From: a candidate division WWE3 bacterium
Lineage (GTDB): Bacteria > Patescibacteriota > WWE3 > UBA101185 > UBA10185
NCBI GenBank assembly: GCA_014729135.1
Contig: WJKK01000001.1
Span: forward strand, 730,919 to 794,918
Length of the DNA stretch: 64,000 bases
Direction of reading: 5' to 3'
Made by a program: the position numbers and the translations under genes. The notes beneath the pieces are model-generated. The model was given only the letters and a program-made list of their open reading frames with translations. It made no database searches and was not told where the DNA came from. Below are positions 1,763-32,192 of the stretch, piece after piece. Position 1 is the stretch's first letter; every line of letters starts with the position of its first letter.

Positions 1763-1848
1763 GAGTTACCGCAAGCACCAAAGAATCGAGTTAGGACCAA
1801 GATCAGCTCCACAACCAAAACCAAACAAAAGCAAATTAAAAACAAAAC

Positions 1849-2518: not shown

Positions 2519-2566
2519 AAAGAGAAACCGAACTAAAAACTAGTTAAAATCCTGTCCGAAAAGCCA

Positions 2567-3265: not shown

Positions 3266-3279
3266 TAGAATCCTTCCGT

Positions 3280-4055: not shown

Positions 4056-4162
4056 GCTTTAAGTTAGTTAACGAGAAGGCAATTATTTTCTTCTTTTTAA
4101 ATAAAGGAGGAACTTGAAACCCCCACTTTGTGGGGGTTTTTTGTTATTGCTATAATCTAAAC

Positions 4163-4843: not shown

Positions 4844-4844
4844 A

Positions 4845-14827: not shown

Positions 14828-17800
14828 CTACTCCTCAACTTCCCAAGAAATATCTACTAAACTTAAAAACAGACTTTCAAAGTCGGTTCCTGCTGCCACA
14901 CTATCCATAAGCTGTTTGTGCAAATAATAAGCATAAGCAGGATCATAATGAACGGCAACTCCGGGATACATGTTTCGCAACTCACCCAAGTCGTTGAATG
15001 TACGGTTGCGGTTAAAGTTCATAGTACCTCCTGAAATAAAAGCACCTTCTAAAACTAGCGAAGTGTCTCCCGGGTCGTCAATTTCTTCATTTTCAAATTC
15101 AACAGAGGGGAAGTTTATGTCACCTAGGGCAAAAACAGAGGCTCCTATTGTGACATCAGAGGCATCTCCGGCGGGAACGTCTACACCCAATTCTTCGGAG
15201 AAAGTCACACCTCCATTAACAACGAGCAAAATCTTTCTATTGTCATTACCGCTGTAAAAGGGCTCCTCAAAAGTGATGTCGCCATCAATATAGATCACAA
15301 CCACACCATCAGAAGCAATATCACCGGAATAATCTCCCTCGCCTCCGATGTCTGCTAAAACGTCTTCAAAAGTGGAAGCAGACATGGAATAGACCATTGT
15401 GGGGTCTAAACCGGAAAAGTCTTCTGTAGAACTAATGTCCGCAAACTCCCCACCGGATAAGTCACCGGAGGCAATTGCCAGAAAAAGGGGAGAAGAAGCA
15501 TAGCCGTACTCAGGGGCGGAAGAGATGGCACTATTACTGTCAGAGCTTTCAACGTCAGATAAGTCTCCCGCAGATAGGGCAAAATCATCTGTCATGTAGT
15601 TGTCATAAACTCCGGGGGTTTCGGGGGTAATCATTGTAATAGCACTTCCGGAGTAAACACCTCCATTAACTACGGTAAACCAACCATCTAAAGCGGAGGT
15701 AAGCTCGTAACCTAGATTAATGGTTACATTACCGGGTACTGTGTAAGGTCCTGTGGCTAAAAGCCCCGGCCCTACACTTAAGGTTCCCGGAGTAACACAG
15801 CCCAGCTGAAAGTTTGTGTCTGTTGGGGCATCCAGGTCGTCCAATTCCAGATACATACCTGTAACATCAGAACCAACAGGGAAGGCGTCACTCTGATTAT
15901 TACTACTATATGCTCCTGTACCGGAATCTATACTAAACTCAAAGTTTTGTTGCGGATCAACAGGATCCGGAACTTCTGCGGTCATTGTAAGATCCGGAGA
16001 TGAAGCAAAATAAGCTAAAGTTTCTCCTTCAGCAGGATTGCAGGTAGTAGTGTCAGAAACAGTGGCGTCGAAAATGGTCCCGGAAATTTGCGGATACCGT
16101 AAAGTTACATTTTTGCTACAAGTAACACTAGCCTCACAAGAAGAATCGCTTAGGTTATCTGAAACTTCCAAAGATATAGGGGCGGAAAATCCACAAGAAG
16201 ATTCGTAAAAATTAGGGGCTGTATAAGAAGTGGAAATTTGTCCTGTAGAAACTCCTGAGGCTTGCTCAGGATTAAAAGAACCCAAGCAAGTAAGAGGTGT
16301 GGAACTCCAAGAATAATCCATATTGTAAGTATCGGAAATAGTGGAAGTGTAAAGCTCAGTGTCTCCAAAAAGTACTGTGCCAGAACCACTTATTGCTGTA
16401 CAGGAGGGGGTATCATTTTTTTGGATAGTGGTTCCTGCACAAAAAACCTGGGAACTATCATCACAGTTATCTGCGTAGGCGTGTATATGAACAGTTCCAT
16501 ATCCTGGATGATTCGCCAAGTTTACAGTTGCTTTCCAAGTGTTCCCACCTACATTAGAAGCCGAATACCGTACAATATCATCTTGACCACCTGTAGCCGT
16601 CCAAGTAGGAAATTTCACTGTCTCAGCGTTGGACACATTGTTAATATAAATATCCACTGTTGAATCAGAACCCAAAACGCAATCAACGCCAGAGCCGTCT
16701 TGCGTAACGGTAATGGAACTAGAACCACAAGTTGGAGCGGAACTATAACCACAATCATCTCCGCCGCCGCCACAATCACCGTCTGCAGGAAGACACGCGG
16801 AAATACCCTGACCACCCCCACAAGGGTCTGTTGGAAGCCACCGAGGATCACAGGTAGAATGGCACGTATCGCGTATATCACCGCATGTCCAATCACAGGA
16901 ACAGTTTGGGGGATCTTCTGGATCTTCTGGAGGGTCTTCAGGGTCAGGATTTACCCAATGACAATTCCAAGAGTCGCAGGAATAGGCACGTAAATCGACG
17001 CAACCGCCATAACTGGGCTCATAATAACAAGGATTCTGGCCAGTAGCACAGGTATCACAATAGGGGTCACCCTCCTCGCATTCACAGACAGTAGTACAAG
17101 GGGTGCCCGAACAATAAGCATATCCCCTCTTCAGAACCCCTAAACCCTCCAGGAAACCAATTAAACCACCATTCTTAGAAATATCCACCAAACCAACATC
17201 AGCATTCAAAGCCGTAAAAAACTCCTCGGGAGGAGAGTAATTAGATGAAACGACCTCAAAATCAGACGTCAAATAATCAACGCCCTGATAAAGCAACCCG
17301 CTAAAAATCTTCTCAGCCACAACTTCATTGCTTTGCAAAACAGCAGGCGAAATGCTAACTTCTAAAACAACATCTTCATCCTGCGCCAGAAAATTCAAAC
17401 CCATCTCCACATCTGTCCCCGAAAAAATCTTGGCGGAACTCAAATCATCCGTTAAATAAATCGTCAAAGTTTCAGGTGTAACATATTTCGGTGGAACCTC
17501 AGAGTCATTTTGCAAATACGTCTTGACTTCATCAAGCGAATAGGTGTAACGTGCAGCATTTTCTGTAAAAAAACCTTTAGTGTATAAATAAGCGGAAAAC
17601 TTTTGCTTTCCTGCAGGAGTAAACTCAATTTCAAAATCCTCAATTTGAGACTCTACGCGCACACTATCCTCAAATAAAGAAATATTAGAGTTGTCTCCGG
17701 ATTCCTGTATTTTTGAAAATGGTGAAGGAGTTTCGTCCCGAGAGGGGGATTGATTTGTTTTGGCAGCTCGTGGGGTGTCCTTTAGAAATAGTTTGGAAAT

Positions 17801-17923
17801 TTGTTCTACAGAGAGGGGGAAACTATAAGTGGTTATGGAAAATGTCAAACCTCCAAGCACAAAAATCAATAAAAAGGTCAAAAGGGCTAGAATTTTCAAA
17901 CCTTTAGGCAGTTTCAGCTTCAT
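14828..17923 (-). CDS. Giant (1031 aa) secreted Cys-rich protein, candidate pilus tip adhesin (PilY1-analogous)
   Basis: N-terminal signal/TM 'ILALLTFLLIFVLGGL'. Central cluster of about 40 Cys ('CSGTPCTTVCECEEGDPYCDTCATGQNPCYY...'). 'PEDPPEDPEDPP' linker. First gene of the pilus locus. Confidence 0.35.
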   Translation of the reverse strand: MKLKLPKGLKILALLTFLLIFVLGGLTFSITTYSFPLSVEQISKLFLKDTPRAAKTNQSPSRDETPSPFSKIQESGDNSNISLFEDSVRVESQIEDFEIEFTPAGKQKFSAYLYTKGFFTENAARYTYSLDEVKTYLQNDSEVPPKYVTPETLTIYLTDDLSSAKIFSGTDVEMGLNFLAQDEDVVLEVSISPAVLQSNEVVAEKIFSGLLYQGVDYLTSDFEVVSSNYSPPEEFFTALNADVGLVDISKNGGLIGFLEGLGVLKRGYAYCSGTPCTTVCECEEGDPYCDTCATGQNPCYYEPSYGGCVDLRAYSCDSWNCHWVNPDPEDPPEDPEDPPNCSCDWTCGDIRDTCHSTCDPRWLPTDPCGGGQGISACLPADGDCGGGGDDCGYSSAPTCGSSSITVTQDGSGVDCVLGSDSTVDIYINNVSNAETVKFPTWTATGGQDDIVRYSASNVGGNTWKATVNLANHPGYGTVHIHAYADNCDDSSQVFCAGTTIQKNDTPSCTAISGSGTVLFGDTELYTSTISDTYNMDYSWSSTPLTCLGSFNPEQASGVSTGQISTSYTAPNFYESSCGFSAPISLEVSDNLSDSSCEASVTCSKNVTLRYPQISGTIFDATVSDTTTCNPAEGETLAYFASSPDLTMTAEVPDPVDPQQNFEFSIDSGTGAYSSNNQSDAFPVGSDVTGMYLELDDLDAPTDTNFQLGCVTPGTLSVGPGLLATGPYTVPGNVTINLGYELTSALDGWFTVVNGGVYSGSAITMITPETPGVYDNYMTDDFALSAGDLSDVESSDSNSAISSAPEYGYASSPLFLAIASGDLSGGEFADISSTEDFSGLDPTMVYSMSASTFEDVLADIGGEGDYSGDIASDGVVVIYIDGDITFEEPFYSGNDNRKILLVVNGGVTFSEELGVDVPAGDASDVTIGASVFALGDINFPSVEFENEEIDDPGDTSLVLEGAFISGGTMNFNRNRTFNDLGELRNMYPGVAVHYDPAYAYYLHKQLMDSVAAGTDFESLFLSLVDISWEVEE

Positions 17924-18033: not shown

Positions 18034-18064
18034 AGAAGTCGAAGTTGAAGTTGGGGAGGGGGGT

Positions 18065-18649
18065 CTAGGGGAGGGGGTGCCACCGACCAGCGTCGGAGCT
18101 GGGGATGGAGTAGGCGGCGGGCAATCCGTCAACGTAACGGACGGCAACAGCCGTTCCATCCTCCAGGAGGACAACAGCAGCACCCGCGCCGCCAGGGTAC
18201 TCCGCCAAAGGTGCGCCCATCGGCGACGTGGTCCACCGACCCCACTGATATCCCCAGAGAAGAAAATTGGAGCCGTCGCTACGCCGGAGGGCGTAGGGTT
18301 CGTAAACGACCTCGGCGGGGCAGCTGGCGTCGTCACGCAGGGCCGCGACGAACAGCTGATCTGCCGCAACGGGAACCTTATACCAGGGCGTCTGGTATGC
18401 CGAAACAGCTTCGTCACTCAGGAGCGTGCGCGCCTGCGCCAACCGCTCCTCATAGGCCGCACGGGCGGACGAATCTGGTGCGACGCAGATGGACATGTAC
18501 GTGCCGTCTGCTCGGCGGGTGATCGCCGCGAGCACCGCGTCGGGGTCAACCGCCGGCGGAGCCGAGGAGACACCATTGGGAACGAATAGCACGATAATGA
18601 GAACGACGCATACAGTAATCAACGCCAAACGAACCAGGTTGGTCTTCAT
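18065..18649 (-). CDS. Secreted hypothetical protein encoded in a high-GC island
   Basis: 194 aa from the ATG at 18649, preceded by a perfect SD 'aggaggtg' with a 5-nt spacer. Signal-peptide-like 'LVRLALITVCVVLIIVLFVPNGVSSA'. Codon usage is strongly GC3-biased, unlike the rest of the window. Confidence 0.5.
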   Translation of the reverse strand: MKTNLVRLALITVCVVLIIVLFVPNGVSSAPPAVDPDAVLAAITRRADGTYMSICVAPDSSARAAYEERLAQARTLLSDEAVSAYQTPWYKVPVAADQLFVAALRDDASCPAEVVYEPYALRRSDGSNFLLWGYQWGRWTTSPMGAPLAEYPGGAGAAVVLLEDGTAVAVRYVDGLPAAYSIPSSDAGRWHPLP

Positions 18650-18746
18650 CTTGTCACCTCCTGTGACCATCAGTGCGAAAAGAGCCTGCAACTTCAACTA
18701 TTCAAATTTCAAACTGTCTCGGATTATAGGATAAAACCTCCCAAAT

Positions 18747-18950: not shown

Positions 18951-19796
18951 CTATAATTCTACGCTTGTCCTTAATAACCGGTCTCTTATTTTGCTCGTTT
19001 TAGTAGAATAAAGTTCATATCTTATTCCCCTTAATAAGCATTCGCTGTTACAAAAAACAACATCCGGACTAAAAAAGTATCTGGCTTTTCTTTCTTTACT
19101 CAATTGCAGAAAGGTGACTTTAATTCTACCGTCCTCCTCATGATAAAAAGTAGTAAAGTGTTTTAATCCCGTATGCTCTGAAGAAGTTAGTTTATCAAAT
19201 TTACGAGTATCTAAACGTTCGGAAAAATAATTATTAATAATATTGGGGGGACTTTTTTCTTTAGAATCTTCTACGTATTGTTTACCCTTTTCATGTTGCA
19301 GAAAATATTTTGTTATTGCTCCCACACTCATATAAATGTTTCCTCCATCTGTTAAACAAGGAGGCTGCTGCTCTAAAGTCTCATAAATTCTTCCTGTATG
19401 TAGGATCGATAAAAAACTACTATTCTCTAAACCCTCCTTCGAAAGCAAATCTTCTAAGCTCTCTAAAGGGGAAGTGCCCTGTTTATAACCAATTTTAACA
19501 AGAGCTAAATTTTTATCTCCAAGCTTCACACCTTCTATTAAAAAATTTGAACCTTCCTTTTTTCCAATAAAGGCCGGGGCTTCTGTTAAAAAACCTAAAA
19601 CACTTTCCCCGTTTCTAAAGATAATCGGCCGTTGTTCCAACTCCTCCAAAGAATAAAGCTTGTTAAGGTTTTCTAAATAAACTTCTAAAACCTTTAAAAT
19701 ATTTAGCCTGTTTTGCTCTTTTATAATAGATAGAGTTAAAGACACAGTAGAATTATACAGGATAAAAAAAGAACCACGATAGATCCCGAACAGCAA
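18951..19796 (-). CDS. Hypothetical protein (281 aa)
   Basis: Long ORF with window-typical composition. No recognisable motif. Lies between direct repeat A and the IS element. Confidence 0.4.
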   Translation of the reverse strand: MLFGIYRGSFFILYNSTVSLTLSIIKEQNRLNILKVLEVYLENLNKLYSLEELEQRPIIFRNGESVLGFLTEAPAFIGKKEGSNFLIEGVKLGDKNLALVKIGYKQGTSPLESLEDLLSKEGLENSSFLSILHTGRIYETLEQQPPCLTDGGNIYMSVGAITKYFLQHEKGKQYVEDSKEKSPPNIINNYFSERLDTRKFDKLTSSEHTGLKHFTTFYHEEDGRIKVTFLQLSKERKARYFFSPDVVFCNSECLLRGIRYELYSTKTSKIRDRLLRTSVEL

Positions 19797-19938
19797 AAGA
19801 TCTATCGTGGCTTCGCCACCTTACGCTTCTTCGGCTCGATCTCAATCAGAGGGGCAATCGCAGTTGGTCGGTACCCTGTATTTTGGACATAAATCTATCA
19901 AAAACCTAGTATAAAATTAAGGTAAGGAGGATTATATT

Positions 19939-20187
19939 ATGTCTGAAACAACCCCACTTGAGGTTAGGAATAAAATCATGGAGGAGGTAAAGCTGGGTGA
20001 ACGCACTATAGCTGCCATAGCCAAGGATTATCACATTCCCGCAGGTCGCGTATACAACTGGATAAGTAGAGGTGTGTCCCAGGATGCACATGTTGTAGAG
20101 ATTAGGAGGCTTCGACGCAAAAACAAGGAACTATATGAAATAATTGGCCGATTAACAGAGGCCGTAGAGCACTTTAAAAAAAAATGA
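19939..20187 (+). CDS. IS3-family transposase OrfA (HTH)
   Basis: 'ERTIAAIAKDYHIPAGRVYNWISR' helix-turn-helix. Ends in KKK* over the A9 tract. Confidence 0.7.
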   Translation: MSETTPLEVRNKIMEEVKLGERTIAAIAKDYHIPAGRVYNWISRGVSQDAHVVEIRRLRRKNKELYEIIGRLTEAVEHFKKK

Positions 20188-20203
20188 GGTAGCCAGGTGG
20201 ATA

Positions 20204-21061
20204 TTGAGTCAGGACAACCAATATATTACCGTACAAGAGCTTTGTAACTGTTTAGATATTTCAAAATCCTCCATTTATTATGAAAAGAAGCTTCCCAAAA
20301 AAGACTTGAAGCTAAGTAAGCAAATTATTGATGTAATTAACAAGAATAAGACATATGGTCACAGACGGGTTGCCTTAGAGCTTAACATTAACAAGAAAAG
20401 GGTACTTAGAGTAATGAGGCTATTTAATATCAAGCCCTTAATAACCAGGTCTAAAAAGCCCCGATATAAATATAAGAAGGGAGAGTCTAGATTTGAGAAT
20501 CTAATTAAGACTATATGTCCAATAAGGCCTTATGTAATATTAGCTACTGATTTTACCTATTTGAGGTTTAAAAATTCCTTTTTGTATTTAGCTACTGTAT
20601 TAGACATATATACTAAGGAAATATTGGGTTATGCGGTTTCTACCAGACATACTCAAAACTTAGTATTAGAGGCTGTTAAATATGGATTAAGTAAATGCAA
20701 AACCTTACCTCTTTTTATACATTCTGATGAAGGTAGCGAATACATGTCAGATGCGTACATAAATTATGTACACTCCCAAAATATTGAACTATCAACAAGT
20801 GATATTGCTTCCCCTTGGCAAAACGGATTTAAAGAATCCTTTTATTCCCAATTTAAACTTGATCTGGGTGCAAAGAATCTAAACAGATTTGATACCTTGG
20901 GAGAAGTTGTAGGACATATTTATAAAACAATCTATTATCACAATAACCAAAGAATTCACACGACTATAAAAACACAACCTGTTAAATTTAGAAATCAAGA
21001 ATTAGCTAAATGGTCTGATGTTTGTTGTGATAGATTGGTGTCCAAAAAAATGGGTACTTGA
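20204..21061 (+). CDS. IS3-family transposase OrfB (integrase core, DDE)
   Basis: 'HRRVALEL...VLRVMRLFNIKP', 'ATDFTYL', 'HSDEGSEYMSDAY', 'SPWQNGFKESF' rve-domain motifs. Frame is open back to 20168. TTG start in the track. Confidence 0.75.
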   Translation: MSQDNQYITVQELCNCLDISKSSIYYEKKLPKKDLKLSKQIIDVINKNKTYGHRRVALELNINKKRVLRVMRLFNIKPLITRSKKPRYKYKKGESRFENLIKTICPIRPYVILATDFTYLRFKNSFLYLATVLDIYTKEILGYAVSTRHTQNLVLEAVKYGLSKCKTLPLFIHSDEGSEYMSDAYINYVHSQNIELSTSDIASPWQNGFKESFYSQFKLDLGAKNLNRFDTLGEVVGHIYKTIYYHNNQRIHTTIKTQPVKFRNQELAKWSDVCCDRLVSKKMGT

Positions 21062-21096
21062 CATTTAGACAGAGCATAGCAATTAAGAAGATTGAG

Positions 21097-21173
21097 TGCA
21101 AATTCATTAGATAATTATTTCTGTCATCCAAGCCCTCTTGTTAGATAAAAAATTCAATGCCATCCAAATTTAA
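21097..21173 (+). repeat. Right copy of ~75-bp imperfect direct repeat
   Basis: 'tgcaaattcattagataattatttctgtcatccaagccctcttgttagataaaaaattcaa...aaatttaa', a copy of 18747-18820. Confidence 0.6.
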
Positions 21174-21243
21174 AAGCCTCCGCCCAACACGCGCAGACCA
21201 CCCCATCGAAAACAAAAACCTACCACCATTATGTCTAATCAAA

Positions 21244-21438
21244 TTACTGCTCAACCAAAGTTCCCTTTCTATGAATTTTAAGAAAAAGCTTTTCTGCATC
21301 TTCAAGATATTCTGCAAGAGGCTTAAGACCTACTTCAGCGCGTAATTCATCCACTCTGTCAGGATACTGAAGGGGCATGTGAGGCTCTTTCTCCCACCTT
21401 ATCCGACTAGGACCCATGGAACCTATTCGGGCATACAA
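21244..21438 (-). CDS. Small hypothetical protein (64 aa), divergent from the radical-SAM gene
   Basis: ORF only. No motif. Confidence 0.2.
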   Translation of the reverse strand: MYARIGSMGPSRIRWEKEPHMPLQYPDRVDELRAEVGLKPLAEYLEDAEKLFLKIHRKGTLVEQ

Positions 21439-21472
21439 ACCAAAAACAACTACGGCGAGCGAGATTATCTTG

Positions 21473-21478
21473 TATAAT
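21473..21478 (+). promoter_or_regulatory. TATAAT -10 element with upstream TG, ~40 nt upstream of radical-SAM gene
   Basis: 'cttgTATAATgt', followed by a strong RBS 'aaggaggg' (21505-21512) before the ATG at 21517. Confidence 0.3.
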
Positions 21479-21516
21479 GTCCATAAATTGAAAACCTAAT
21501 ACAAAAGGAGGGAAGG

Positions 21517-22833
21517 ATGTTATACATGTTAAAAACAGACGTGTATTTTGTGCGCGGCGCCTTGAATGGTGCCCTTTTAGATACCCGAAGGGGGAATGTG
21601 TACTCCATAAACGAAAAGGCTTGCCAAGTACTGATGGGCGAGAGGGAAGATAGCGAATATTGGAAACTATTAAGTGACCAGGGACTTTCGGATAGTCCAG
21701 GTTCTATAAAAAGAGCGAAATTTTCAAGAAGAACCCCATGCGAATTAGACTTCGTGTGGTTCGAAATCACCTCTAGCAAATGTAATCAAAGCTGCATTCA
21801 CTGCTACACCGATTCCTCACCACAGACATCTCGTGAGAAACAGAAACACGTAGACACCTTATTAACACATCAGCAATGGCTTCAAGCTATACGGGAAGCC
21901 TATAACCTTGGCTGTAAAAAATGCCAGTTTATTGGAGGGGAACCCTTTCTCTATAGAGGAAAGGGAGGAGAAACTCTGAGAAATCTCGTTTCATATTCTA
22001 GAGACTTGGGATACAACTTCATTGAAGTTTTCACCAACGGATTACTTCTAACTCCCGCGAGAATCGCCTGGCTGAAAGAGTTAGGCGTTCATGTGGCCAT
22101 CTCCTTGTACTCAATGGAGGCGAGCATTCACGACTGTATCACACAAACACCTGGGAGTCAGCGTCAGACAATGTCTGCAATAGAAGAAATGTTGGCTAGA
22201 GATATTCCCTTTCGTGTCGAGACGGTCTTGATGAAACCTAACGAAAAAAGCGTTCCCAGACTTCAAGAAGCAAAGAAAACTTGGGGCGTTGAAAGTACCG
22301 TGGATATCTTGCGTCCTACAGGTCGAGGAGACAAACAACGATTCCAACCGGAATTTGAATACCTAGCTAAACATGGTCTGCAATTGGAACCTGCATTTGT
22401 CATAGATGAACAAACACTGCGACGGAACTTAGGTGGCAATCCCTGTCTCCAAAAACAACTCGTACTTACGGCGTCAGGGGAGGTATTTCCTTGTGTTTTC
22501 GCCAGAGAAACACATCTGGGTAGTATCAAAAAGACTTCCCTGGCAGGTATTATAGAGGAAACTCGCACCCAAGAAATATGGAATGCAACCAAAGACGGCG
22601 TCCTGGTGTGTAAGGACTGTGAGTATAGGTATGTTTGTCAAGACTGCAGGCCCCTCGCAAAAGCAGAGGCACACCCGCGGGGAAATCTCATGTCAGCTCC
22701 TCCACCTCGCTGTACCTACAACCCCTACACAGGGGAGTGGGCCGCTGGACTATGGACACTGGGCAACGAAGCATCTCCCTTCTATGATAGGACCAAGGGA
22801 GAGGAAATACAGCGTCTCCTGCAAATAAAGTAG
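21517..22833 (+). CDS. Radical SAM / SPASM-domain peptide-modifying enzyme with N-terminal RRE-like extension
   Basis: 'CNQSCIHC' is a CX3CX2C motif. 'IGGEPFL' is the SAM-binding glycine motif. The C-terminus has 'CX13GX4C' and 'CKDCEYRYVCQDC' auxiliary-cluster (SPASM) patterns. An ~75-aa N-terminal domain precedes the rSAM core. Confidence 0.8.
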   Translation: MLYMLKTDVYFVRGALNGALLDTRRGNVYSINEKACQVLMGEREDSEYWKLLSDQGLSDSPGSIKRAKFSRRTPCELDFVWFEITSSKCNQSCIHCYTDSSPQTSREKQKHVDTLLTHQQWLQAIREAYNLGCKKCQFIGGEPFLYRGKGGETLRNLVSYSRDLGYNFIEVFTNGLLLTPARIAWLKELGVHVAISLYSMEASIHDCITQTPGSQRQTMSAIEEMLARDIPFRVETVLMKPNEKSVPRLQEAKKTWGVESTVDILRPTGRGDKQRFQPEFEYLAKHGLQLEPAFVIDEQTLRRNLGGNPCLQKQLVLTASGEVFPCVFARETHLGSIKKTSLAGIIEETRTQEIWNATKDGVLVCKDCEYRYVCQDCRPLAKAEAHPRGNLMSAPPPRCTYNPYTGEWAAGLWTLGNEASPFYDRTKGEEIQRLLQIK

Positions 22834-22889
22834 TGTATACTCAACACAATGTAAACAAACTCCATTACCTAACAAAGGAGGTGAGAAGA

Positions 22890-23009
22890 ATGAAAACAGC
22901 TAAAGGAGCTACTCTGAAGCTGGTATCACAGGGTACAGATGTGAAATGTAAACCCACAAGCTGTAAACCCCGGATTTGCAATCCTAACGGAGGGTGCAAA
23001 CCACGTTAG
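22890..23009 (+). CDS. Candidate RiPP precursor peptide (39 aa) with four C-[K/N]-P motifs
   Basis: RBS 'aaaggaggtga' lies 7 nt before the ATG. Translation MKTAKGATLKLVSQGTDVKCKPTSCKPRICNPNGGCKPR*. Missing from the ORF track (<60 aa). Sits directly 3' of the rSAM/SPASM gene. Confidence 0.6.
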   Translation: MKTAKGATLKLVSQGTDVKCKPTSCKPRICNPNGGCKPR

Positions 23010-23059
23010 ACAGAGGGAATCCCGCGCCGTTAAATGAGGTAATATCTTAACAGAGGATG

Positions 23060-23806
23060 TCACTCTGATAGGATATTACCTCCCCTTATTTCTCTTAAAT
23101 ACTCATAAATATTCTGATTCTGACTTTCCAAATATACATTCCAACTATCAAGCAGCTCCTTTTTAATCTCAAGCAAACTCGCATGCCCTTCTAAATCTCC
23201 CGCAACAGAGTGATATACGTCACCTCCGTTCAGACGAATACGTAACTCATTATCAGCAATTAACTCTATTAACGCGTGCTCTAATTCACTCTTCCCAAAC
23301 AAAGAGTGCAAGGCTTCATGCACCAAATAAACAAGGGAATAATTTTCCCAATCCTCTGTATGCCCCCAAAGTATTTTATCCCCAATATTAATACCATTAC
23401 CAAGTTCAGGAGCTAATACAGCAACCTTAAAAGTCTCCACAGGTAAATCCACCCTCAAAATATCCTCCAGCTCTTTTAAAACTATATCTTTTTTATCTTC
23501 CCATTCCTTTTCTAACCATGCTTTATATTTCTCTGTCTTTTCTAGAAGCTTTTCATACTCTTTGGATTTTCTTACTTTATCGAATAAAGCTTCAGTTTGG
23601 TTTGGAACTTTTCTTAACTGCTCTAAAGCGGAATCATTTGCAAAAAATAAAACCACCTCTCTATATAAGAAAAACTCGTAAGCTATTTTGTAATCTTTCC
23701 ATAAAGCGTTCTTTAGGCTCTCCCAGTCCTCCAACGCGTAGGCATTCTTCCCAAACAGGGCCTCTGCAATGAGTATGGTTTCCTCTACTTCAAACTGAAA
23801 GTTCAT
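23060..23806 (-). CDS. HExxH-motif protein, putative zinc metallopeptidase
   Basis: 'LVYLVHEALHSLFGKSELEHALIELI' has HEALH plus a downstream Glu. Convergent with the precursor gene. Confidence 0.35.
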   Translation of the reverse strand: MNFQFEVEETILIAEALFGKNAYALEDWESLKNALWKDYKIAYEFFLYREVVLFFANDSALEQLRKVPNQTEALFDKVRKSKEYEKLLEKTEKYKAWLEKEWEDKKDIVLKELEDILRVDLPVETFKVAVLAPELGNGINIGDKILWGHTEDWENYSLVYLVHEALHSLFGKSELEHALIELIADNELRIRLNGGDVYHSVAGDLEGHASLLEIKKELLDSWNVYLESQNQNIYEYLREIRGGNILSE

Positions 23807-23945
23807 GAGCGTATTTTAGCATTTTTCATGATACACTCTCTCGCGATACCCCAATACTTAGATAAAACGCTGACAGCTACAAAAGAAGTCTCTCATTTGT
23901 AATAAAATACAAGTTATCGACAGAAATAAATTACTCTAAATAAAC

Positions 23946-24254
23946 ATGGAAAGAATGAGCATAATGACACAGAAAGCCGTCTTCAAAGAAATTTCCAAGA
24001 TTGTAAAAAAACATCTTCCTAAAGGGGATTATTCCGTTTTTGTTTTTGGCTCACGCGCTACAAATACCTCCAGAGAATACAGCGATATAGACGTTGGAAT
24101 AGAGGGTGACGAGAAACTCCCGCTAAGCACAATCGGATTTATGAAAGAAGATCTCGAAAAATCATCCATTCCCTATACTGTAGATGTTGTGGATTTTTCT
24201 AGAGTTTCTGCGCATTTTAAAGACTTTGCCACTAAAAATACAATTAAGCTATGA
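23946..24254 (+). CDS. Minimal nucleotidyltransferase (MNT / Pol-beta superfamily), no HEPN partner seen
   Basis: 'VFVFGSRATNTSREYSDIDVGIE' is the GS...DxD motif. Confidence 0.65.
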   Translation: MERMSIMTQKAVFKEISKIVKKHLPKGDYSVFVFGSRATNTSREYSDIDVGIEGDEKLPLSTIGFMKEDLEKSSIPYTVDVVDFSRVSAHFKDFATKNTIKL

Positions 24255-24409
24255 TTTCAAAACAGGAAAAAATCAACTATCAAACGAAAAGCTCAAAGCT
24301 ACACATTTAAAAGCAAATCTCCAGCTACAAACACACACACCAGCATAATGCGTTTGGAAGTTTATAAGTTAGGGGAATAAAAACCTATCTACTAAGCTAT
24401 AATATCCTC

Positions 24410-25696
24410 ATGCAAACAAACAAATTAAAAACCCTAATAAAAGAAAGCAAATTGTCGGTCTGCCTAGACTCCCGACAAATAAAAAAAGGAGACTACTTCA
24501 TCCCCGTTGTAGGAGAAAACCACGACGGCCACAGATTCATTGAAGCAGCCCTAAAAAACGGAGCTGCAGGAGTCATTGAAGAAAACGAACTTTATGACTT
24601 AGCACGTTTTAAAATCTCTCTTATAAAACCAAAAATCATAGGAGTCACCGGATCCTCCGGAAAAACCACAACTACTCAGTTTATTTACCAATTGCTGGCA
24701 ACCAAACATTCCACTACTTTGGGACATTTAAACACTAAACTGGGTCTTGCTGTGGATACCATTAATGAAATGAACTTAGACTGTAAGTATTTTATTGCAG
24801 AAATGGGGATGGATCGCGCAGGAGAACTAGAGGAAACCACAGAACTTTTCTCCCCAAATGTTGCTGTAATTACAACAATAAATGAGACGCACATGGAAAA
24901 ATTAGGTTCCCTGGAGAAAATTGCAAAAGCCAAATTTGGTATAGCCAAAAACCTAAAAAAAGAGGGTACGTTGATTTTAAATGCAGATAATGAGGCCATT
25001 CAAAATTATGTTAAGAGGCACCGTCCCAAAGTAGATTTGCTGTGGTTTAGCTTAAAAGACTCCGATGATATTAATCCGAAAAAGCTAAACAAAGATATAT
25101 TTAAAAACTTCAAAATTCCCGGGGAACACAACAAATCCAATTTACTTGCTTCCTTAAGTGTTTTAAAGGCTTTAAATGAACCAATAGACAACTACATTGA
25201 GCAAATTACCCAACTTCAACTGCCAAAGGGACGTCTCACAAAGCTAGAAGGCATTAACAACAGTGTGATTTTAGATGACACTTACAATGCTAATCCGGAA
25301 TCTACAAAAGCAGCTTTAAAAGTCTTGGATGAAATTAAAGGTAAGCGTAAGATTGCGGTTTTAGGAAATATGCTGGAGCTTGGAGATTATGAAAAAGAGG
25401 GGCATGAAAAGGTGGGTGAGGCCGTAACACAAGCTAAGGTTGATTTCTTGGTAACCGTGGGGGATTTGGGGGAAATTATTAGTAAAACCGCACAAGTTAA
25501 CAGGAAAATACATCTGGATAAGTCGACGGATTTTAAGGAGGCTTTAGACAAGGGAGAGGTGAAAATAAAGGAGGGAGATGTGTTTTTAGTTAAAGGTTCT
25601 CAAGGTGCACGAATGGAAAAAATTACAGAAGTACTTTTAGCTAACCCGGGAAGGGATAGAGCTAAGCTAGTGCGTCAAGATGTTCGGTGGGAATGA
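24410..25696 (+). CDS. murF: UDP-N-acetylmuramoyl-tripeptide--D-alanyl-D-alanine ligase (MurF-type Mur ligase)
   Basis: 'IGVTGSSGKTTTTQ' P-loop and 'DDTYNANPES' fit the Mur ligase family. Confidence 0.7.
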   Translation: MQTNKLKTLIKESKLSVCLDSRQIKKGDYFIPVVGENHDGHRFIEAALKNGAAGVIEENELYDLARFKISLIKPKIIGVTGSSGKTTTTQFIYQLLATKHSTTLGHLNTKLGLAVDTINEMNLDCKYFIAEMGMDRAGELEETTELFSPNVAVITTINETHMEKLGSLEKIAKAKFGIAKNLKKEGTLILNADNEAIQNYVKRHRPKVDLLWFSLKDSDDINPKKLNKDIFKNFKIPGEHNKSNLLASLSVLKALNEPIDNYIEQITQLQLPKGRLTKLEGINNSVILDDTYNANPESTKAALKVLDEIKGKRKIAVLGNMLELGDYEKEGHEKVGEAVTQAKVDFLVTVGDLGEIISKTAQVNRKIHLDKSTDFKEALDKGEVKIKEGDVFLVKGSQGARMEKITEVLLANPGRDRAKLVRQDVRWE

Positions 25697-26576: not shown

Positions 26577-27410
26577 TTATAAGTACCAATTTAAGAACAA
26601 GTCTCCTGCTACAAAAACCAGAAGACTGCCTAGAATCATGAAAGGGCCAAAGGCAATCTTATCCTTCATTCCTTTTTTGCCTAGGGCCATCAATCCCAAA
26701 CTTACAACAGATCCTAAAACAAAAGAAGAGAAAATTGCAATAATATTGTAGGGAAAGCGGTTAAAAAGTCCTATTAAAAAAGCAAGGCGAACATCGCCAA
26801 AACCCATCCCTTTACCCTTAGTAATAGCATGTAAAAACCAAAAGAAAAGACCTAAAGAGACTGCAGAAACAACGTCAGACGATTTAAAACCAAACACCAC
26901 GTAGAAAACTCCAACCACTGCCAAACCTGTAAAAATAGCTTCATTAGGAATAATTTGATATTTGGTGTCTGCTAAAAAGATAACGATATATACCGAAAAG
27001 ATTAGTAAAAAATAGGCAAATAGCAAAACCGGATAGATATTGAAGCCCAAACCAAAAGCAGAACCCAGGGATCGAACTAAACCCGCATTTAATCCGGAAT
27101 GCAAAGGGGCGCCACCAAAAACTCCTGATGAAACTGCAGCCAACAAGAATATAACTCCTGTTAAAACCTCCGATAGGGGATAGGCCACTGATAAACGCTC
27201 GCTGCAGTAGCGACATTTCCCCTTGTTAAACACAAAAGAAAAAACGGGAATTAAATCGGCAACTTTTAAAACGTTGTCGCAAAAATCGCAATGAGACCGA
27301 CCAAATAAAATGGATTCTCCTGAAACCAAGCGATCAGCAACTAGATTTAAAAAGGACCCCACAAAAAGCCCCATGACAAAAACAAAAAAGTAGTAAAAGT
27401 ATATCTCCAT
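26577..27410 (-). CDS. pilD: Prepilin peptidase PilD (A24 family)
   Basis: 'CDFCDNVLKVADLIPVFSF...CRYCSERLS' tetracysteine motif and 'GMGFGDVRLAFLIGLF' catalytic Asp region. Start taken at the internal Met. Confidence 0.8.
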   Translation of the reverse strand: MEIYFYYFFVFVMGLFVGSFLNLVADRLVSGESILFGRSHCDFCDNVLKVADLIPVFSFVFNKGKCRYCSERLSVAYPLSEVLTGVIFLLAAVSSGVFGGAPLHSGLNAGLVRSLGSAFGLGFNIYPVLLFAYFLLIFSVYIVIFLADTKYQIIPNEAIFTGLAVVGVFYVVFGFKSSDVVSAVSLGLFFWFLHAITKGKGMGFGDVRLAFLIGLFNRFPYNIIAIFSSFVLGSVVSLGLMALGKKGMKDKIAFGPFMILGSLLVFVAGDLFLNWYL

Positions 27411-27481
27411 TAAAGTGTTCTCAATTTTAAAGTAGTCTCGGATAGCGTTTAAAACTTGGCATCCCCATATCAAAGAACCGG

Positions 27482-27991
27482 CTACAAACTCAAGTCAGTC
27501 CCAATCTCATATAAACCGGGAGAAACTCCACCATCAAGACGCATTTTGTTAGCATTATCCGCCGACTCCAAAGGCACGCTCAACTTAAACTTTTGAGTTT
27601 GACCATTTGCCACAAATTCATAAACATAAGGCTTCTCGTTAAGGGAATCTATGGGCAATTGATTCAAATATTTACGCAATCCGGGAGTTTCCTCCATAAC
27701 ATTAAACTTTACCCAGCCTTTTCCATCCACTTTAAAAGAACCGGTTAAAGTGGTGCAACTATCACAATCTGAAGTATCCTCCAAGGTAATAAGCTCTTCT
27801 GCCAAGGAAAGCTGCAAGGCCTTGTTAAGTTCATCCAAATCCTGGATTCTTTCGGCATCTCGACTTTTTGCAAGAATTGCCTGCGGATCTATGGCTACAA
27901 AGAGTATTCCGGTTATTGCCACCGCAACTCCTAAAACAATTATTAATTCGGGAAGTGTGAAGCCGGTCTTTTGGCAGGTTTTTTTATTCAT
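27482..27991 (-). CDS. Type IV pilin / pseudopilin
   Basis: 'KTGFTLPELIIVLGVAVAITGILFVAI'. Start taken at the internal Met (MNKKTCQ). Confidence 0.65.
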   Translation of the reverse strand: MNKKTCQKTGFTLPELIIVLGVAVAITGILFVAIDPQAILAKSRDAERIQDLDELNKALQLSLAEELITLEDTSDCDSCTTLTGSFKVDGKGWVKFNVMEETPGLRKYLNQLPIDSLNEKPYVYEFVANGQTQKFKLSVPLESADNANKMRLDGGVSPGLYEIGTDLSL

Positions 27992-28034
27992 ACACCTAGT
28001 ATAACAAAGTAGAAAAGTAGGACGGAAAAGAGTT

Positions 28035-28101
28035 AGGCTGTGTTTCTTTCGAACGAATTTTGGCGTACTCGCCAACCTGAGAGAGAAAGAACATACAGCC
28101 T
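28035..28101. repeat. Long imperfect hairpin between pilC and pilin gene
   Basis: aggctgtgtttctttc (28035-28050) / gaaagaacatacagcct (28085-28101), with a 34-nt loop. Confidence 0.4.
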
Positions 28102-28136
28102 AACTCGCCCCCTTGCACTACTCCCAGCTTAAAAAA

Positions 28137-29339
28137 CTAAATTGAAGTAGTAATATTATAAATCGGCGTAATAATCGAAACAATCAAAAGCCCCACCATA
28201 CTTCCCAATAAAACCAAAATAATCGGCTCCAAAGCAGCCGACAAATTCTCGATAGCCGAATTCGTCTCACCCTCATAATAATCAGCCACCCTACCCAAAA
28301 CCTCATCCATCTTACCCGTCTCCTCACCAACTCCCGCCATCTGCCCCAACAAAGCCGGAAAATTCTTATTCCCTCTAAAAAAGTCTGACAAAGAATTGCC
28401 CCGCTCCACATACTCCGCTGCATCCAGGGAAGCCTGCTTTAAATCGTGACTGTTAACAACCGAAGAAACGATGTTAAGCGACTCCACAATTGGAATAGCC
28501 GAGTTAATAAGCAAACTCAGTGTACGAGCAAAAGAAGTAATTTCTTTATTCCTATTAATCTTCCCAAAGACCGGAAGCTTGAAGCCAATTTCAGATAAAA
28601 GCTTCTTTCCATAATCGGTATTCTTAAAATAGCGAAGTGAAACCATAACAGCTCCAATAATTAACAGCAACAAAGCCGTATGCCCCGTCATAAAGTCAGA
28701 AATTGCAATCATAACCTTAGTGGGCAAGGGGAGGGGAACATCTAGATCTTTGTACATGTCCGTTAACTGCGGCACAACCACAATCATCATTAAAATGAAA
28801 ACACCAACCATTGCCAACATAACAATCGCCGGATAAATCATGGCTCCCTTAAACTTAGACTTTAATTCGCGCTCAGCCTCCATTGTTGAGGCCAGGCGCT
28901 TTAAAACAGTGTGCAAATTTCCTGAAGCCTCACCTGCACGTACCAATGCCTGATAAGTGTTAGAAAAAATGTTGGGATACTTTGCAAAGGAATCTGAAAG
29001 GGACAAACCTCCCTCAACATCCCGCAAAATGTTAGAAAGCACCTTGCGAAACTTGTAATTGTCAGTCTGACCGATTAGAACCTCTAAAGATCGCGACAGA
29101 GGCAATCCGGCTGAAATCATTGTAGAAAACTGACGCGTAAAAGTAACAACTTGATCCGTTGGGACCCCTCTAAAAGATAAAATAGACTTTAAAACATCGC
29201 CTTGAGACTTTTCCAAATTAACAATAAAAAGATCCTCCTCCTTTAAAAGTCCAACAGCACCTTCCTTTGTTTTTGCATCAACGGTTCCTGATTTTTTCTT
29301 GCCCTCATGATCTAGGGCAGTGTATTTATATACGGGCAT
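28137..29339 (-). CDS. pilC: Type IV pilus inner-membrane platform protein PilC (GspF family)
   Basis: 400 aa with two GspF repeats and three TM segments. Confidence 0.8.
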   Translation of the reverse strand: MPVYKYTALDHEGKKKSGTVDAKTKEGAVGLLKEEDLFIVNLEKSQGDVLKSILSFRGVPTDQVVTFTRQFSTMISAGLPLSRSLEVLIGQTDNYKFRKVLSNILRDVEGGLSLSDSFAKYPNIFSNTYQALVRAGEASGNLHTVLKRLASTMEAERELKSKFKGAMIYPAIVMLAMVGVFILMMIVVVPQLTDMYKDLDVPLPLPTKVMIAISDFMTGHTALLLLIIGAVMVSLRYFKNTDYGKKLLSEIGFKLPVFGKINRNKEITSFARTLSLLINSAIPIVESLNIVSSVVNSHDLKQASLDAAEYVERGNSLSDFFRGNKNFPALLGQMAGVGEETGKMDEVLGRVADYYEGETNSAIENLSAALEPIILVLLGSMVGLLIVSIITPIYNITTSI

Positions 29340-29351
29340 AAACTTCTTTTT

Positions 29352-30410
29352 TTACTTTAGCAAGCGCCTAACCTGATCCGGCTTATTTGTAAAGCGCAGC
29401 GCTTTATCGGGATCAACTAATCCTTGCTCTATTAAGGTAGCCAAGCTTCTTTCGAGGGAGGTCATGCCTACATTGGAGCTTGTATGGATTACGTTGTCAA
29501 TTTGCTCAAATTTACCTTCACGAATTAGGTTACGAACTGCAGAAGAACCCAGCAAAATTTCAGTAGCCGGGTAAATTTCACCGGATTTAGTAGGCACTAA
29601 GCGCAACGAAACCACAGCTTCTATAATGGCTGCAAACTGAGACTGGATCCCTCCATGTTTATCCTGAGGGAACACGTTAATTATTCGCTCAACTGTTTGA
29701 GAGGCCGAATTCGTATGCAGCGTGGCAAAAACCAGGTGACCTGTTTCCGCAATCCGCAAAGCTGCCGAAACCGTTTCGCGGTCACGCATCTCTCCAATAA
29801 AAACGACGTTAGGATCCTGACGCAAAACTGACTTTAAAGCATTATCCCAAGAAGCTGTATCCACAAAAAGCTCCCGCTGCTCCACTAAAGACTGCTTGTT
29901 ATTAAAAATGTACTCAATGGGATCCTCCAAAGTAATAATATGCTCGGCACGATTTTCGTTAATTTTGTCAATAATTGCAGCTATTGTAGTAGACTTTCCA
30001 TGACCTGCGGGACCTACCACTAAAATCATCCCTTGCTTTAATTCTGCAAGCTGGGAAATGCTTGGCGGAAGATTTAACTCCTCTAAGGAAGGAACTACAT
30101 TAGGAATGTAACGCATTGCAACGGAGGGGTAGCCCTTTTGATAAAAGGCGTTAACTCTAAAACGGGCTTTCTTCCCTAAAGCCACCGAAAAATCAAGCTC
30201 TTTGCTAACCTCCAAAATATCCAACTGATCTTGATCCAAAACTTGCGCCAAAAAGGCGTTAACGTCCTCTATGGTTAGCTGCGAATAACCCGGAAGCTTT
30301 TGCAATTGGCGATTCACACGCACCGTGGGCTCTGACCCAACAACAATATGAAGGTCCGAAGCCTCCACGTTTACAACTTCATCTAAAATCTTTGATGCAT
30401 TAAAACTCAT
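29352..30410 (-). CDS. pilT: Twitching-motility retraction ATPase PilT
   Basis: 352 aa. 'GPAGHGKSTT' Walker A and 'FIGEMRD' follow the PilT/GspE family pattern at PilT length. Confidence 0.8.
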   Translation of the reverse strand: MSFNASKILDEVVNVEASDLHIVVGSEPTVRVNRQLQKLPGYSQLTIEDVNAFLAQVLDQDQLDILEVSKELDFSVALGKKARFRVNAFYQKGYPSVAMRYIPNVVPSLEELNLPPSISQLAELKQGMILVVGPAGHGKSTTIAAIIDKINENRAEHIITLEDPIEYIFNNKQSLVEQRELFVDTASWDNALKSVLRQDPNVVFIGEMRDRETVSAALRIAETGHLVFATLHTNSASQTVERIINVFPQDKHGGIQSQFAAIIEAVVSLRLVPTKSGEIYPATEILLGSSAVRNLIREGKFEQIDNVIHTSSNVGMTSLERSLATLIEQGLVDPDKALRFTNKPDQVRRLLK

Positions 30411-30419
30411 ATTATTTTG

Positions 30420-32192
30420 CTATTTTGCTACTCGCATTACCTCCTCGAGAGTGGTGGTACCCTCTAAAACTCTTAAAACACCGTCTTGCTGCAAACTAAG
30501 CATTCCCTCTGCCTGCGCCTGCTGATGCAACTTTCCGGCGGAGGCGTGGTCTAAAACAAGCTCCGACAAGGCCTCACTCATCGACAAAACCTCAAAAATT
30601 CCAACTCGCCCGGAATAGCCCGTGCCATTACACTCGTCGCAACCCTTACCTCGATATAACTTAATATCATTATTACGCAACTTTTTTAATGATTCAATTA
30701 ATTGCTTATCTTTTGACTGCGAAAGGAGTTTTGACTCTTCCATACCATGCATAATACCTTTAATCTGCTGCTTTACTTCCTCGGGAGGATCTATTTCAGT
30801 TTTACAAACGGGGCAAATTCTACGAACAAGGCGCTGAGCAACAATGGCGTTTACTGTGGACACCAGTAGGTAGTCCTCAATGTCCATGTCAAGCAACCGT
30901 GGAAGCGCACCTGCGGAGGAGTTGGTGTGCAGCGTTGCCAGTACCATGTGACCTGTTAGTGCAGCATGAATTGCCAGTTCCGCAGTTTCACCGTCGCGAA
31001 TCTCACCGACCATGATGACGTTAGGGTCCTGACGAAGGAAGGCGCGAAGGCCGTTTGCAAATGTAAGCCCGGCTTGCGGATTCACCTGCACCTGATTAAC
31101 TCCCGGTATTCTAATTTCTACCGGATCCTCCAGCGTCATGATGTTAACACGCACTGTGTTTAGCTTGTTAAGCGCGGCTGCCAGCGTTACGGTTTTACCG
31201 GAGCTTGTGGGGCCTGTTACCAGAAGCATTCCTGTGGGTTTCAAGATAGCTTCTTCTACACGCTTTAATGAAAGCCCGCGCAATCCCAAATCCTTAAAGG
31301 AGTGAACAGAGCCCTCATCCTGCAAAAGTCGAATAACAACTTTTTCCCCGTTTACTGTAGGCAAAGTGGAAACACGCAAGTCCGTGGCCGTATCACCTAC
31401 TTGAACTTTAAAACGGCCGTCTAAAGGTTTGCGCTTTTCATCCAGCTTCATGTTGGCTAAAATCTTTATGCGAGCAACTACCGGATCATGCATCTGCTTA
31501 GGAAGCGTGCGCTTTTCCTCAAGAACACCATCAATTCGGTAACGCAATCTGGTGCTATCCTCATGCGGTTCAATGTGAATGTCGGAGGCTCCTGTTTTTA
31601 CAGCGGTCTCTAAAATCATGCCCACAATCCTTGCAATAGGAGCATCCCGAAGTGTTGCTGTAGATATCTCCTCGCTGGTTTCATCCAGTTTTAAAGTAGT
31701 TTGATTGATTTCCTCAAGGGCAGCGCTTATTTCCTCGCCAATGGCCCTCCCTTGTAAGTCGCCTAAAACATGAGAAATCTCCCCAGGAGTTGTTATGAAA
31801 GGCTTAACATGAACGTTCTCCTTTTTTTCTATGAACTCTATTGTGGGAAGATCCAGGGGATCCACCATTGCCAGTGAGAGCTTATTTTTTTCTTTGTCAT
31901 ACTCAAAGGGAATGACTTGCTGATTTTTTGCAAGGTCAATGGTTACGTAGTCCATTAGGGAAGGGTCTATTTCCTTGTCACGAAGCGATACAAAAGGAAT
32001 GCCGTAGGATTCACCGTAAGCTTTAATGAAGTCTAGTTCTGAAACGTAGTTGTGCTCTTTAATTATTTGGGTAACGGGTTTTCCGGTGTTAATGTTTTCA
32101 AATTTTATAGCCGAAAGTTGATCGTCGGTGATGAGTTCTTTATCGTGAAGGATGTCTTCAATTGATTTTGTGTCGGTTAGTTGAGTAGGCAT
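30420..32192 (-). CDS. pilB: Type IV pilus assembly ATPase PilB (GspE family)
   Basis: 590 aa. 'VTGPTSSGKT' Walker A, 'MVGEIRD', tetracysteine 'CPVCK...CDECNGTG'. Confidence 0.8.
   Translation of the reverse strand: MPTQLTDTKSIEDILHDKELITDDQLSAIKFENINTGKPVTQIIKEHNYVSELDFIKAYGESYGIPFVSLRDKEIDPSLMDYVTIDLAKNQQVIPFEYDKEKNKLSLAMVDPLDLPTIEFIEKKENVHVKPFITTPGEISHVLGDLQGRAIGEEISAALEEINQTTLKLDETSEEISTATLRDAPIARIVGMILETAVKTGASDIHIEPHEDSTRLRYRIDGVLEEKRTLPKQMHDPVVARIKILANMKLDEKRKPLDGRFKVQVGDTATDLRVSTLPTVNGEKVVIRLLQDEGSVHSFKDLGLRGLSLKRVEEAILKPTGMLLVTGPTSSGKTVTLAAALNKLNTVRVNIMTLEDPVEIRIPGVNQVQVNPQAGLTFANGLRAFLRQDPNVIMVGEIRDGETAELAIHAALTGHMVLATLHTNSSAGALPRLLDMDIEDYLLVSTVNAIVAQRLVRRICPVCKTEIDPPEEVKQQIKGIMHGMEESKLLSQSKDKQLIESLKKLRNNDIKLYRGKGCDECNGTGYSGRVGIFEVLSMSEALSELVLDHASAGKLHQQAQAEGMLSLQQDGVLRVLEGTTTLEEVMRVAK

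Follow-up and report, generated by a model that had tools for sequence, protein, structure and literature searches.

Among the closest described systems, the ranthipeptides of the PapB/freyrasin type carry repeated Cys-X3-Asp units, each closed by a thioether between sulfur and C-beta, and related small-ring synthases are NxxcB, GggB and QmpB. In CteB, the substrate cysteine binds the open iron site, and the anaerobic sulfatase-maturating enzyme (anSME) works without a leader-binding N-terminal domain and has eight cluster-ligating cysteines. Here we describe a three-gene cassette from a candidate division WWE3 bacterium, located in a stretch of 64,000 nucleotides (nt) that was analyzed as a whole and is called the window throughout (contig WJKK01000001.1 of assembly GCA_014729135.1, positions 730,919 to 794,918). 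The cassette comprises a radical S-adenosylmethionine (SAM)/SPASM maturase (21517..22833, + strand), a small precursor peptide with four Cys-x-Pro (CxP) units (22890..23009, +) and a convergent HExxH protein (23060..23806, -). On comparative sequence evidence, we consider it likely that the small open reading frame (ORF) encodes the precursor of a radical-SAM-modified peptide, made by ribosomes and altered after translation (a RiPP), that is processed by the adjacent maturase and then relieved of its leader by the HExxH protein.

By its sequence features the cassette is a radical-SAM/SPASM-dependent RiPP system of the general kind, with a CX3CX2C motif and a seven-Cys SPASM region in the maturase and a co-located small ORF that combines a conserved leader with a variable core, and it represents a new family. 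The likeness to PapB/freyrasin systems lies in a SPASM maturase beside a small precursor and in tandem short Cys units, each apparently processed alone. In contrast to those systems, the CxP unit has no conserved Asp, Asn or Gly acceptor, only the Pro at +2 being conserved, and the leader motif and the HExxH partner set the CxP system further apart. Membership in the ranthipeptides (PapB, SCIFF-CteB or QhpD type) was rejected on the PapB model and on the lack of an acceptor at fixed spacing. The sactipeptide synthases (SkfB, AlbA, StsB and CteB-like) share with the CxP maturase a radical-SAM core and a seven-Cys SPASM region, and have an N-terminal leader-binding domain to which its RRE-like domain may correspond, whereas the CxP cysteines reach the C-terminus and do not follow the hairpin layout in which Cys donors occupy one half of the core and acceptors the other; this class was likewise rejected, on its hairpin core and on the AlbA, SkfB and StsB models. 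With anSME the parallels are a SPASM radical-SAM enzyme, a Cys with Pro at +2 in the substrate motif (C/S-x-P/A-x-R) and a comparable fold match, but the CxP substrate is a dedicated small leader peptide with 3-16 units instead of a folded sulfatase, and assignment to the anSME/sulfatase formylglycine class failed on the motif, through its Arg at +4, and on the model TIGR03942.

A conserved Cys-x-Pro precursor gene

The peptide ORF starts 56 nt past the stop codon of the radical-SAM/SPASM gene, with its ATG at 22890 and a TAG at 23007-23009, and its translation reads MKTAKGATLKLVSQGTDVKCKPTSCKPRICNPNGGCKPR. The gene, its signals and the repeat that follows it are:

22874..22884, + strand: Shine-Dalgarno site aaaggaggtga of the peptide gene, read from the sequence, with 7 nt from AGGAGGT to the ATG
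22890..23009, + strand: precursor peptide gene, 39 amino acids (aa) plus stop; E = 7.8e-8 with the family hidden Markov model (HMM), aligning with 22 family members
22905..22928, + strand: putative leader recognition motif GATLKLVS, aa 6-13, from the translation aligned to the family leader motifs
22947..23006, + strand: core region, aa 20-39, with four C-x-P units and a net charge of +5; the leader/core boundary is approximate
23036..23082, no strand assigned: 20-nt inverted repeat, 90% complementary with a 7-nt loop, lying between the convergent genes (repeat finder)

An earlier sequence-only reading of this stretch had proposed a 39-codon ORF with four Cys-x-Pro units at 5/5/6 spacing, a strong Shine-Dalgarno sequence with a 7-nt spacer and no annotation. 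Coordinates and translation were reproduced exactly, the ribosome-binding site was found where listed above, and the peptide is indeed missing from the gene calls, an exact look-up among publicly called genes returning no entry. The genes on either side are annotated in the NCBI record of the candidate division WWE3 bacterium (P0001 and P0121). The cysteines stand at positions 20, 25, 30 and 36, each followed by Lys or Asn and then Pro, and within the 64-kb window this is the only ORF of 20-150 aa that contains at least three CxP units. The inverted repeat downstream is a probable bidirectional terminator hairpin; a consensus terminator scan did not list it because it is without a T-run. An Rfam scan of 19000-25000 returned chance-level matches only.

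Relatives were collected with a family-alignment scan, taking one genome per species, which yielded 69 loci from lineages of the candidate phyla radiation (CPR), Chloroflexi, Firmicutes (Lachnospiraceae, Blautia, Clostridium and Peptococcaceae) and a few others. The set derives from two exact peptide patterns and therefore undersamples the family, and the start codons of the relatives' peptides were picked by eye from Shine-Dalgarno sites and leader alignment. Across these loci and the window, 61 of 7743 ORFs of 20-150 aa contain at least three CxP units, and nearly all of them adjoin the radical-SAM gene on the same strand. An ORF of this kind is present in 50 of the 69 loci, with two units or lower-purity versions in several further loci; the small CxP ORFs that the sequence-only reading had suggested looking for beside SPASM radical-SAM genes thus occur in at least 50 of the 69, in CPR phyla, Chloroflexi and Firmicutes. 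The peptide genes in homologous loci carry the same AAAGGAGGTGA-type site upstream of their start codons.

The defining feature of the family is the near-exclusive placement of its cysteines, as 295 of the 303 core Cys residues (97%) in 51 curated precursors lie within C-x-P. Residue x is nearly unrestricted, with Ser, Gly and Asn the commonest (45 cases of Gly, 19 of Pro). Asp occupies +3 in 23% of units; at +4 the next Cys is the most frequent residue, and Arg occurs there in 5 of 295 units and in none of those in the window. A core holds 3-16 units at spacings of 3-18 (mode 4), units can follow one another back to back with a period of 3, and two cores terminate exactly at C-x-P. Overall the cores are 15.5% Cys and 26% Pro, and their Cys counts are odd as well as even. 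The window core is the shortest of the 51 family members and, together with that of L020c, the most basic.

Upstream of the core lies a conserved leader motif, which reads (E)PTIELVT in Microgenomates and WWE3, GATLVLVS or ATLVLVS in the closest relatives and GATLKLVS in the window peptide, itself 51% identical to the peptides of L016 and L022. Elsewhere the motif is ELTKVT (Saccharibacteria-like genomes) or YE[IF]ECLT or IEKLT (Firmicutes). The amphipathic leader that had been proposed for residues 1-18 is borne out as a leader (residues 1-19), its hallmark being the conserved strand-like GATLKLVS and not amphipathicity.

Selection on the peptide was assessed in seven homologous precursor pairs, where the ratio of nonsynonymous to synonymous change (pN/pS) is 0.19-0.35, synonymous change is near saturation (pS near 0.8) and differing codons are used in about half of the cases where a Cys or Pro is conserved. 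Because pN/pS is low and conserved Cys and Pro residues use different codons, conservation of the precursor acts on the protein; the outcome that would have refuted the sequence-only reading, no conservation or conservation of the nucleotides alone as an untranslated region (UTR) or terminator, is thereby removed. An HMM of 28 CPR precursors, built with the window peptide excluded, recovered the ORF at E = 7.8e-8 among 1839 six-frame segments of the window, the runner-up scoring E = 1.2. By these sequence comparisons the ORF is a real, unannotated gene and a member of the Cys-x-Pro precursor family. Copy number varies among its relatives: the metagenome protein P0160 holds two full leader-core modules in tandem in one ORF, in L020 a single maturase is surrounded by three separate precursor genes, and L037 carries two precursors.

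The maturase and its HExxH partner

The other two genes of the cassette and their principal elements are:

21517..22833, + strand: radical-SAM/SPASM peptide maturase, 438 aa (Pfam Radical_SAM, 3.6e-17; SPASM, 6.2e-07)
21517..21687, + strand: N-terminal domain of the maturase, aa 1-57, resembling a RiPP recognition element (RRE), three strands then two helices in the AlphaFold2 (AF2) model
21781..21804, + strand: CX3CX2C radical-SAM cluster motif CNQSCIHC (C89, C93 and C96), from the translation, invariant in 39 homologues
22444..22713, + strand: SPASM auxiliary-cluster region C310-x10-G-x4-C326 ... C365-x2-C368-x5-C374-x2-C377 ... C399, from the translation
23060..23806, - strand: HExxH protein, 248 aa, putative zinc metallopeptidase
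23306..23320, - strand: HEALH metal-binding motif (H163, E164 and H167), from the translation, with E187 20 residues past H167

In the AF2 model the RRE-like domain has strands at residues 9-13, 18-22 and 27-31 and helices at 33-39 and 46-54, with predicted local distance difference test (pLDDT) values of 82-94, and its family-invariant residues are G14, S30, N32 and L52. It resembles a shortened RRE and, by comparison with known RRE-containing maturases, would bind the leader. Fold alignments with the RRE-containing SuiB, CteB and TigE are full-length (~450 columns). All seven SPASM cysteines are invariant in the same 39 homologues, which show no conserved eighth Cys upstream, and the residue after the GX4C cysteine, Ile327, is nearly invariant. 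Maturase homologues number about 600 at 41-47% identity, nearly all of them from CPR/Patescibacteria (WWE3, Woesebacteria, Roizmanbacteria, Amesbacteria and Levybacteria).

Comparison of the full maturase model (pLDDT 83.6) with the PDB using Foldseek gave SuiB, SkfB, TigE, anSME and CteB as top matches, with E values of 1e-13 to 1e-11, template-modelling (TM) scores of about 0.5 and little difference in score among them (anSME structure 4k39, E = 3.4e-12), while the family sequence profile matched best to the sactisynthase SkfB (6.5e-13). No NCBIfam family reached its cut-off: the scores were 92 bits against 500 for AhbD, 90 against 175 for grasp-with-SPASM (SPASM part only), 53 against 349 for anSME (TIGR03942), 49.7 against 850 for AlbA, 47.2 against 625 for StsB and 44.4 against 300 for SkfB. 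The PapB model NF047865 was not within the top 25 NCBIfam matches of the window enzyme, and it gave the Firmicutes homologue of L053 55 bits against a cut-off of 340. Because no curated NCBIfam model comes near its cut-off, the enzyme is placed by sequence in an uncharacterised clade of SPASM peptide maturases.

A third conserved component, overlooked in the sequence-only reading, was found by all-against-all clustering of neighbouring ORFs. This component is an HExxH protein, which adjoins the precursor in 33 loci and falls into two families, one of about 280 aa with the motif HEFGH (20 loci) and one of about 250 aa (13 loci, including the window with its HEALH). A single family was rejected, as the hhalign profile-profile probability is 0.8% and there is no homology beyond the motif. 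Across 25 homologues of the window-type protein H163, E164 and E187 never vary and conservation of H167 is at least 90%, and the AF2 model (pLDDT 89.7) has the thermolysin/M1-like catalytic fold of gluzincins. In thermolysin, H146 and E166 are likewise 20 residues apart, the same spacing as between H167 and E187. Pfam and NCBIfam gave no match for the window protein, and most of its 30 homologues go unnamed or are called 'hypothetical', one being labelled CheZ by one source. From its motif, its conservation and its modelled fold, it is probably a gluzincin-like zinc peptidase that removes the leader.

Two variations on the cassette were observed. Microgenomates-type precursors (L002, L006, L007, L011, L013, L024, L030, L041 and L060) have a conserved polyproline tail past the last CxP, reading ...PPPGPPKPN / PRPPGPPKPPGPN, and all nine loci pair with the ~280-aa HEFGH partner and not with the window-type HExxH protein. 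In L054 (Clostridium sp. UBA5530, 257-6392), two S8 subtilases take the HExxH position and a second, shorter radical-SAM gene is present, an arrangement that gives the impression of an elaborated cassette.

Candidate chemistry of the Cys-x-Pro unit

The view that the peptide is the precursor for the adjacent radical-SAM enzyme and that CxP is its unit of modification, already taken in the sequence-only reading, is well supported by comparative genomics. In the mechanism we propose, the motif GATLKLVS of the leader (approximately residues 1-19) would pair as a strand with the RRE-like domain of the maturase, SAM would be cleaved reductively at the CX3CX2C cluster, and the resulting 5'-deoxyadenosyl radical would act on the four Cys-x-Pro units, abstracting one hydrogen atom at each. 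The invariant +2 Pro probably forces a turn by which the unit is offered to the active site, and it may also be the acceptor. The Cys sulfur would then be joined to the C-alpha of x or to a Pro carbon, producing a small intra-unit thioether with a change of -2 Da per Cys; a cis x-Pro amide, which forms readily, would bring positions i and i+2 together for this bond. Finally, the HExxH protein, acting as a gluzincin-like zinc peptidase, would cut away the leader.

Each unit would have to be modified on its own, because units can stand back to back and some cores end at C-x-P. As, in addition, only Cys and Pro are invariant and x may be Gly or Pro, the change would have to be confined to the unit. 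An intra-unit thioether, from Cys sulfur to the x C-alpha or a Pro carbon, is the chemistry that we tentatively favor by analogy, short of an even chance, because tandem Cys units beside SPASM enzymes typify thioether formers (PapB, NxxcB and GggB), because a seven-Cys SPASM region without an eighth ligand recalls CteB, and because the sulfatase motif's Arg at +4 is missing. Slightly more speculative still is the broader proposal that CxP is the substrate of a radical-SAM reaction new to RiPPs, autonomous for each unit, and that the cassette is the most widespread peptide natural-product system of the CPR. Candidate reactions of this unit-autonomous kind may include a Cys-to-Pro thioether, a Cys-to-neighbor C-alpha thioether (a thiomorpholinone ring) and multi-site conversion of Cys to formylglycine.

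Several points weigh against the proposed scheme. By itself the 10-residue leader motif ranks first but is not significant (E = 0.44), being too short, and Pfam annotation of the neighbours reveals no exporter or transporter gene in the cassette. The Foldseek and HMM similarities do not tell thioether synthases from anSME or other SPASM enzymes, nor do sequence searches of the PDB, whether made with the single protein or with the family profile. For a thioether formed on Pro, or on the neighbor of the Cys, we know of no precedent. HExxH proteins of RiPP clusters, moreover, can be alpha-ketoglutarate-dependent oxygenases and not peptidases (PMC12636437). The window protein gave no match at E up to 1 with TIGR04267, the model of alpha-ketoglutarate-dependent hydroxylases (IPR026337). 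Like the radical-SAM-associated hydroxylases ChlH, BpmH and PflC of that family, it is an HExxH protein genetically coupled to a radical-SAM RiPP maturase; unlike them, it has a gluzincin-type third-ligand Glu 20 residues past the motif. A further difference is that many of the host organisms are anaerobes.

Of the alternatives, the one that survives best retains the cassette and the precursor role and dispenses with the crosslink, and we rate it as unlikely, though a serious rival. The maturase would abstract hydrogen from the Cys C-beta in the manner of anSME, leading to formylglycine or to an oxidised or heterocyclised Cys such as thiooxazole, and a poly-aldehyde or poly-heterocycle peptide would result. 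The Pro would then be a recognition element that forms a turn, as it is in the sulfatase motif. That motif is the sole radical-SAM/SPASM substrate motif known to us with an invariant Cys and a Pro at +2, yet its Arg at +4 recurs in just 5 of the 295 CxP units, and although the anSME structure 4k39 is among the top fold matches, TIGR03942 remains at 53 bits against its cut-off of 349. A change in Cys only, made unit by unit, would fit both the period-3 arrays and the cores ending at CxP, and the acceptance of Gly or Pro at x means that no side chain is required there. The enzymes themselves are less alike, as the CxP maturase combines seven invariant SPASM cysteines with an N-terminal RRE-like domain. 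Where an Asp follows the GX4C cysteine in anSME, the CxP enzyme has the nearly invariant Ile327, and the SbtM-type thio/selenooxazole model is not among its top NCBIfam matches.

We give very little credence to the idea that the peptide is made and left unmodified, as a metallothionein-like metal-binding or disulfide peptide, with the radical-SAM enzyme acting elsewhere. The Cys and Pro content of the cores does recall metal-binding or structural Cys-rich peptides, but Cys counts that are odd as well as even fit poorly with simple disulfide pairing. The absence of an exporter from the cassette would also suit an unmodified peptide, whereas the enzyme-peptide pairing is kept across CPR phyla, Chloroflexi and Firmicutes while other neighbours vary, and a conserved leader apart from a hypervariable core, an RRE-like domain and a peptidase-like gene are hallmarks of RiPPs. 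That the ORF is a chance frame in the 3' UTR or terminator of the radical-SAM gene, as its mere 39 codons, its absence from the public record and its position just upstream of a hairpin might suggest, is effectively refuted by the strong Shine-Dalgarno site at the right distance, the family HMM score, the in-frame CxP conservation with low pN/pS in relatives and the lack of an Rfam match in the region.

Lanthionine chemistry had been dismissed in the sequence-only reading on the grounds that a Pro after every Cys would block it. This argument carries no weight, as the Pro sits at +2 and not next to the Cys; the case against such chemistry is made instead because the partner enzyme is a radical-SAM protein and no lanthipeptide enzyme is encoded nearby. 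The lanthipeptide class was rejected, with no LanB/C, LanM, LanKC or LanL among the Pfam-annotated neighbours.

Distribution, significance and genomic surroundings

Neither the window peptide nor any of 13 relatives was assigned to a family by scans against Pfam and NCBIfam, and searches of open-access papers and bioRxiv turned up no description of a Cys-x-Pro peptide family. The main text of the Mitchell-lab compendium of RRE-associated radical-SAM proteins (PMC10288494) makes no mention of it. Among 5.8 billion clustered proteins, a profile search recovered eight CxP peptides, those named by a source being called hypothetical, and an exhaustive HMM search that covered 1.84 billion representatives gave 34 at E up to 1e-3, including a few unrelated long repeat proteins; with 8 to 34 among billions of predicted proteins, gene callers evidently miss most CxP peptides. 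The sole NCBIfam match from the scan of the window peptide was the UXPK-star selenoprotein domain NF047647, which we rejected as chance (11.8 bits against a cut-off of 35, E = 0.23), there being no UGA codon in the ORF. That domain forms the C-terminal tail of selenoproteins such as methyltransferases (PMC13188914) and is unrelated to radical-SAM systems.

The precursor family and its dedicated maturase are apparently a large, undescribed group, distributed across tiny-genome CPR bacteria and some Firmicutes and Chloroflexi. Genomes of about 1 Mb over which the cassette is spread are those of Microgenomates, WWE3, Dojkabacteria and Saccharibacteria-like bacteria, and an important function is suggested because a three-gene peptide system is conserved in such small genomes. 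In the usual view, CPR/Patescibacteria have almost no biosynthetic gene clusters. Should the cassette indeed be the peptide natural-product system most widespread among them, it could play a part in the episymbiotic lifestyle, and it offers a handle on how uncultured CPR episymbionts interact with hosts or competitors. For the chemistry, a local unit of three residues imposes limits that the known thioether RiPPs leave unexplained, and solving it may yield new enzymology as well as a compact motif for peptide engineering.

Directly upstream of the maturase gene is an IS3-type transposase (19939-21061, +), with an HTH orfA at 19939..20187 and an rve integrase orfB at 20204..21061, and the cassette may sit beside a mobile element, although a stable chromosomal site is suggested by synteny of the downstream genes with the marine Patescibacteria locus L014. 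Farther downstream lies a type IV pilus block (26577-32192, -) encoding an A24 prepilin peptidase, a T2SSF platform protein and two T2SSE ATPases. In L014 the CxP cassette likewise has homologues of three ORFs of this block next to it, those of the prepilin peptidase and the platform protein included.

Sensor histidine kinases were observed within a few kilobases of the cassette in six CPR loci (L004, L014, L016, L024, L027 and L028), with PAS domains in L004 and L016. In L038 (5218-6952), the genes that come immediately after the maturase encode a LuxR-type response regulator and a histidine kinase, and ORFs matched in size and position occur in the related L037. These neighbours may reflect regulated or autoinduced production, or coincidence.

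Three further features of the window were noted. A small nucleotidyltransferase at 23946-24254 (+) is similar to MntA, the antitoxin in type VII toxin-antitoxin systems, with an NCBIfam match of 1.4e-10 that stays below the cut-off, and a partner toxin was not identified. An ORF of ~195 aa at 18050-18650 (-) has 55-60% GC in a genome of ~40% GC, a hydrophobic N-terminus (MKTNLVRLALITVCVVLIIVLF...) and no Pfam match; it was probably acquired horizontally and encodes a protein that is secreted or anchored in the membrane. The 1031-aa product of 14828-17923 (-), which contains a GBS Bsp-like repeat, is probably a surface protein.

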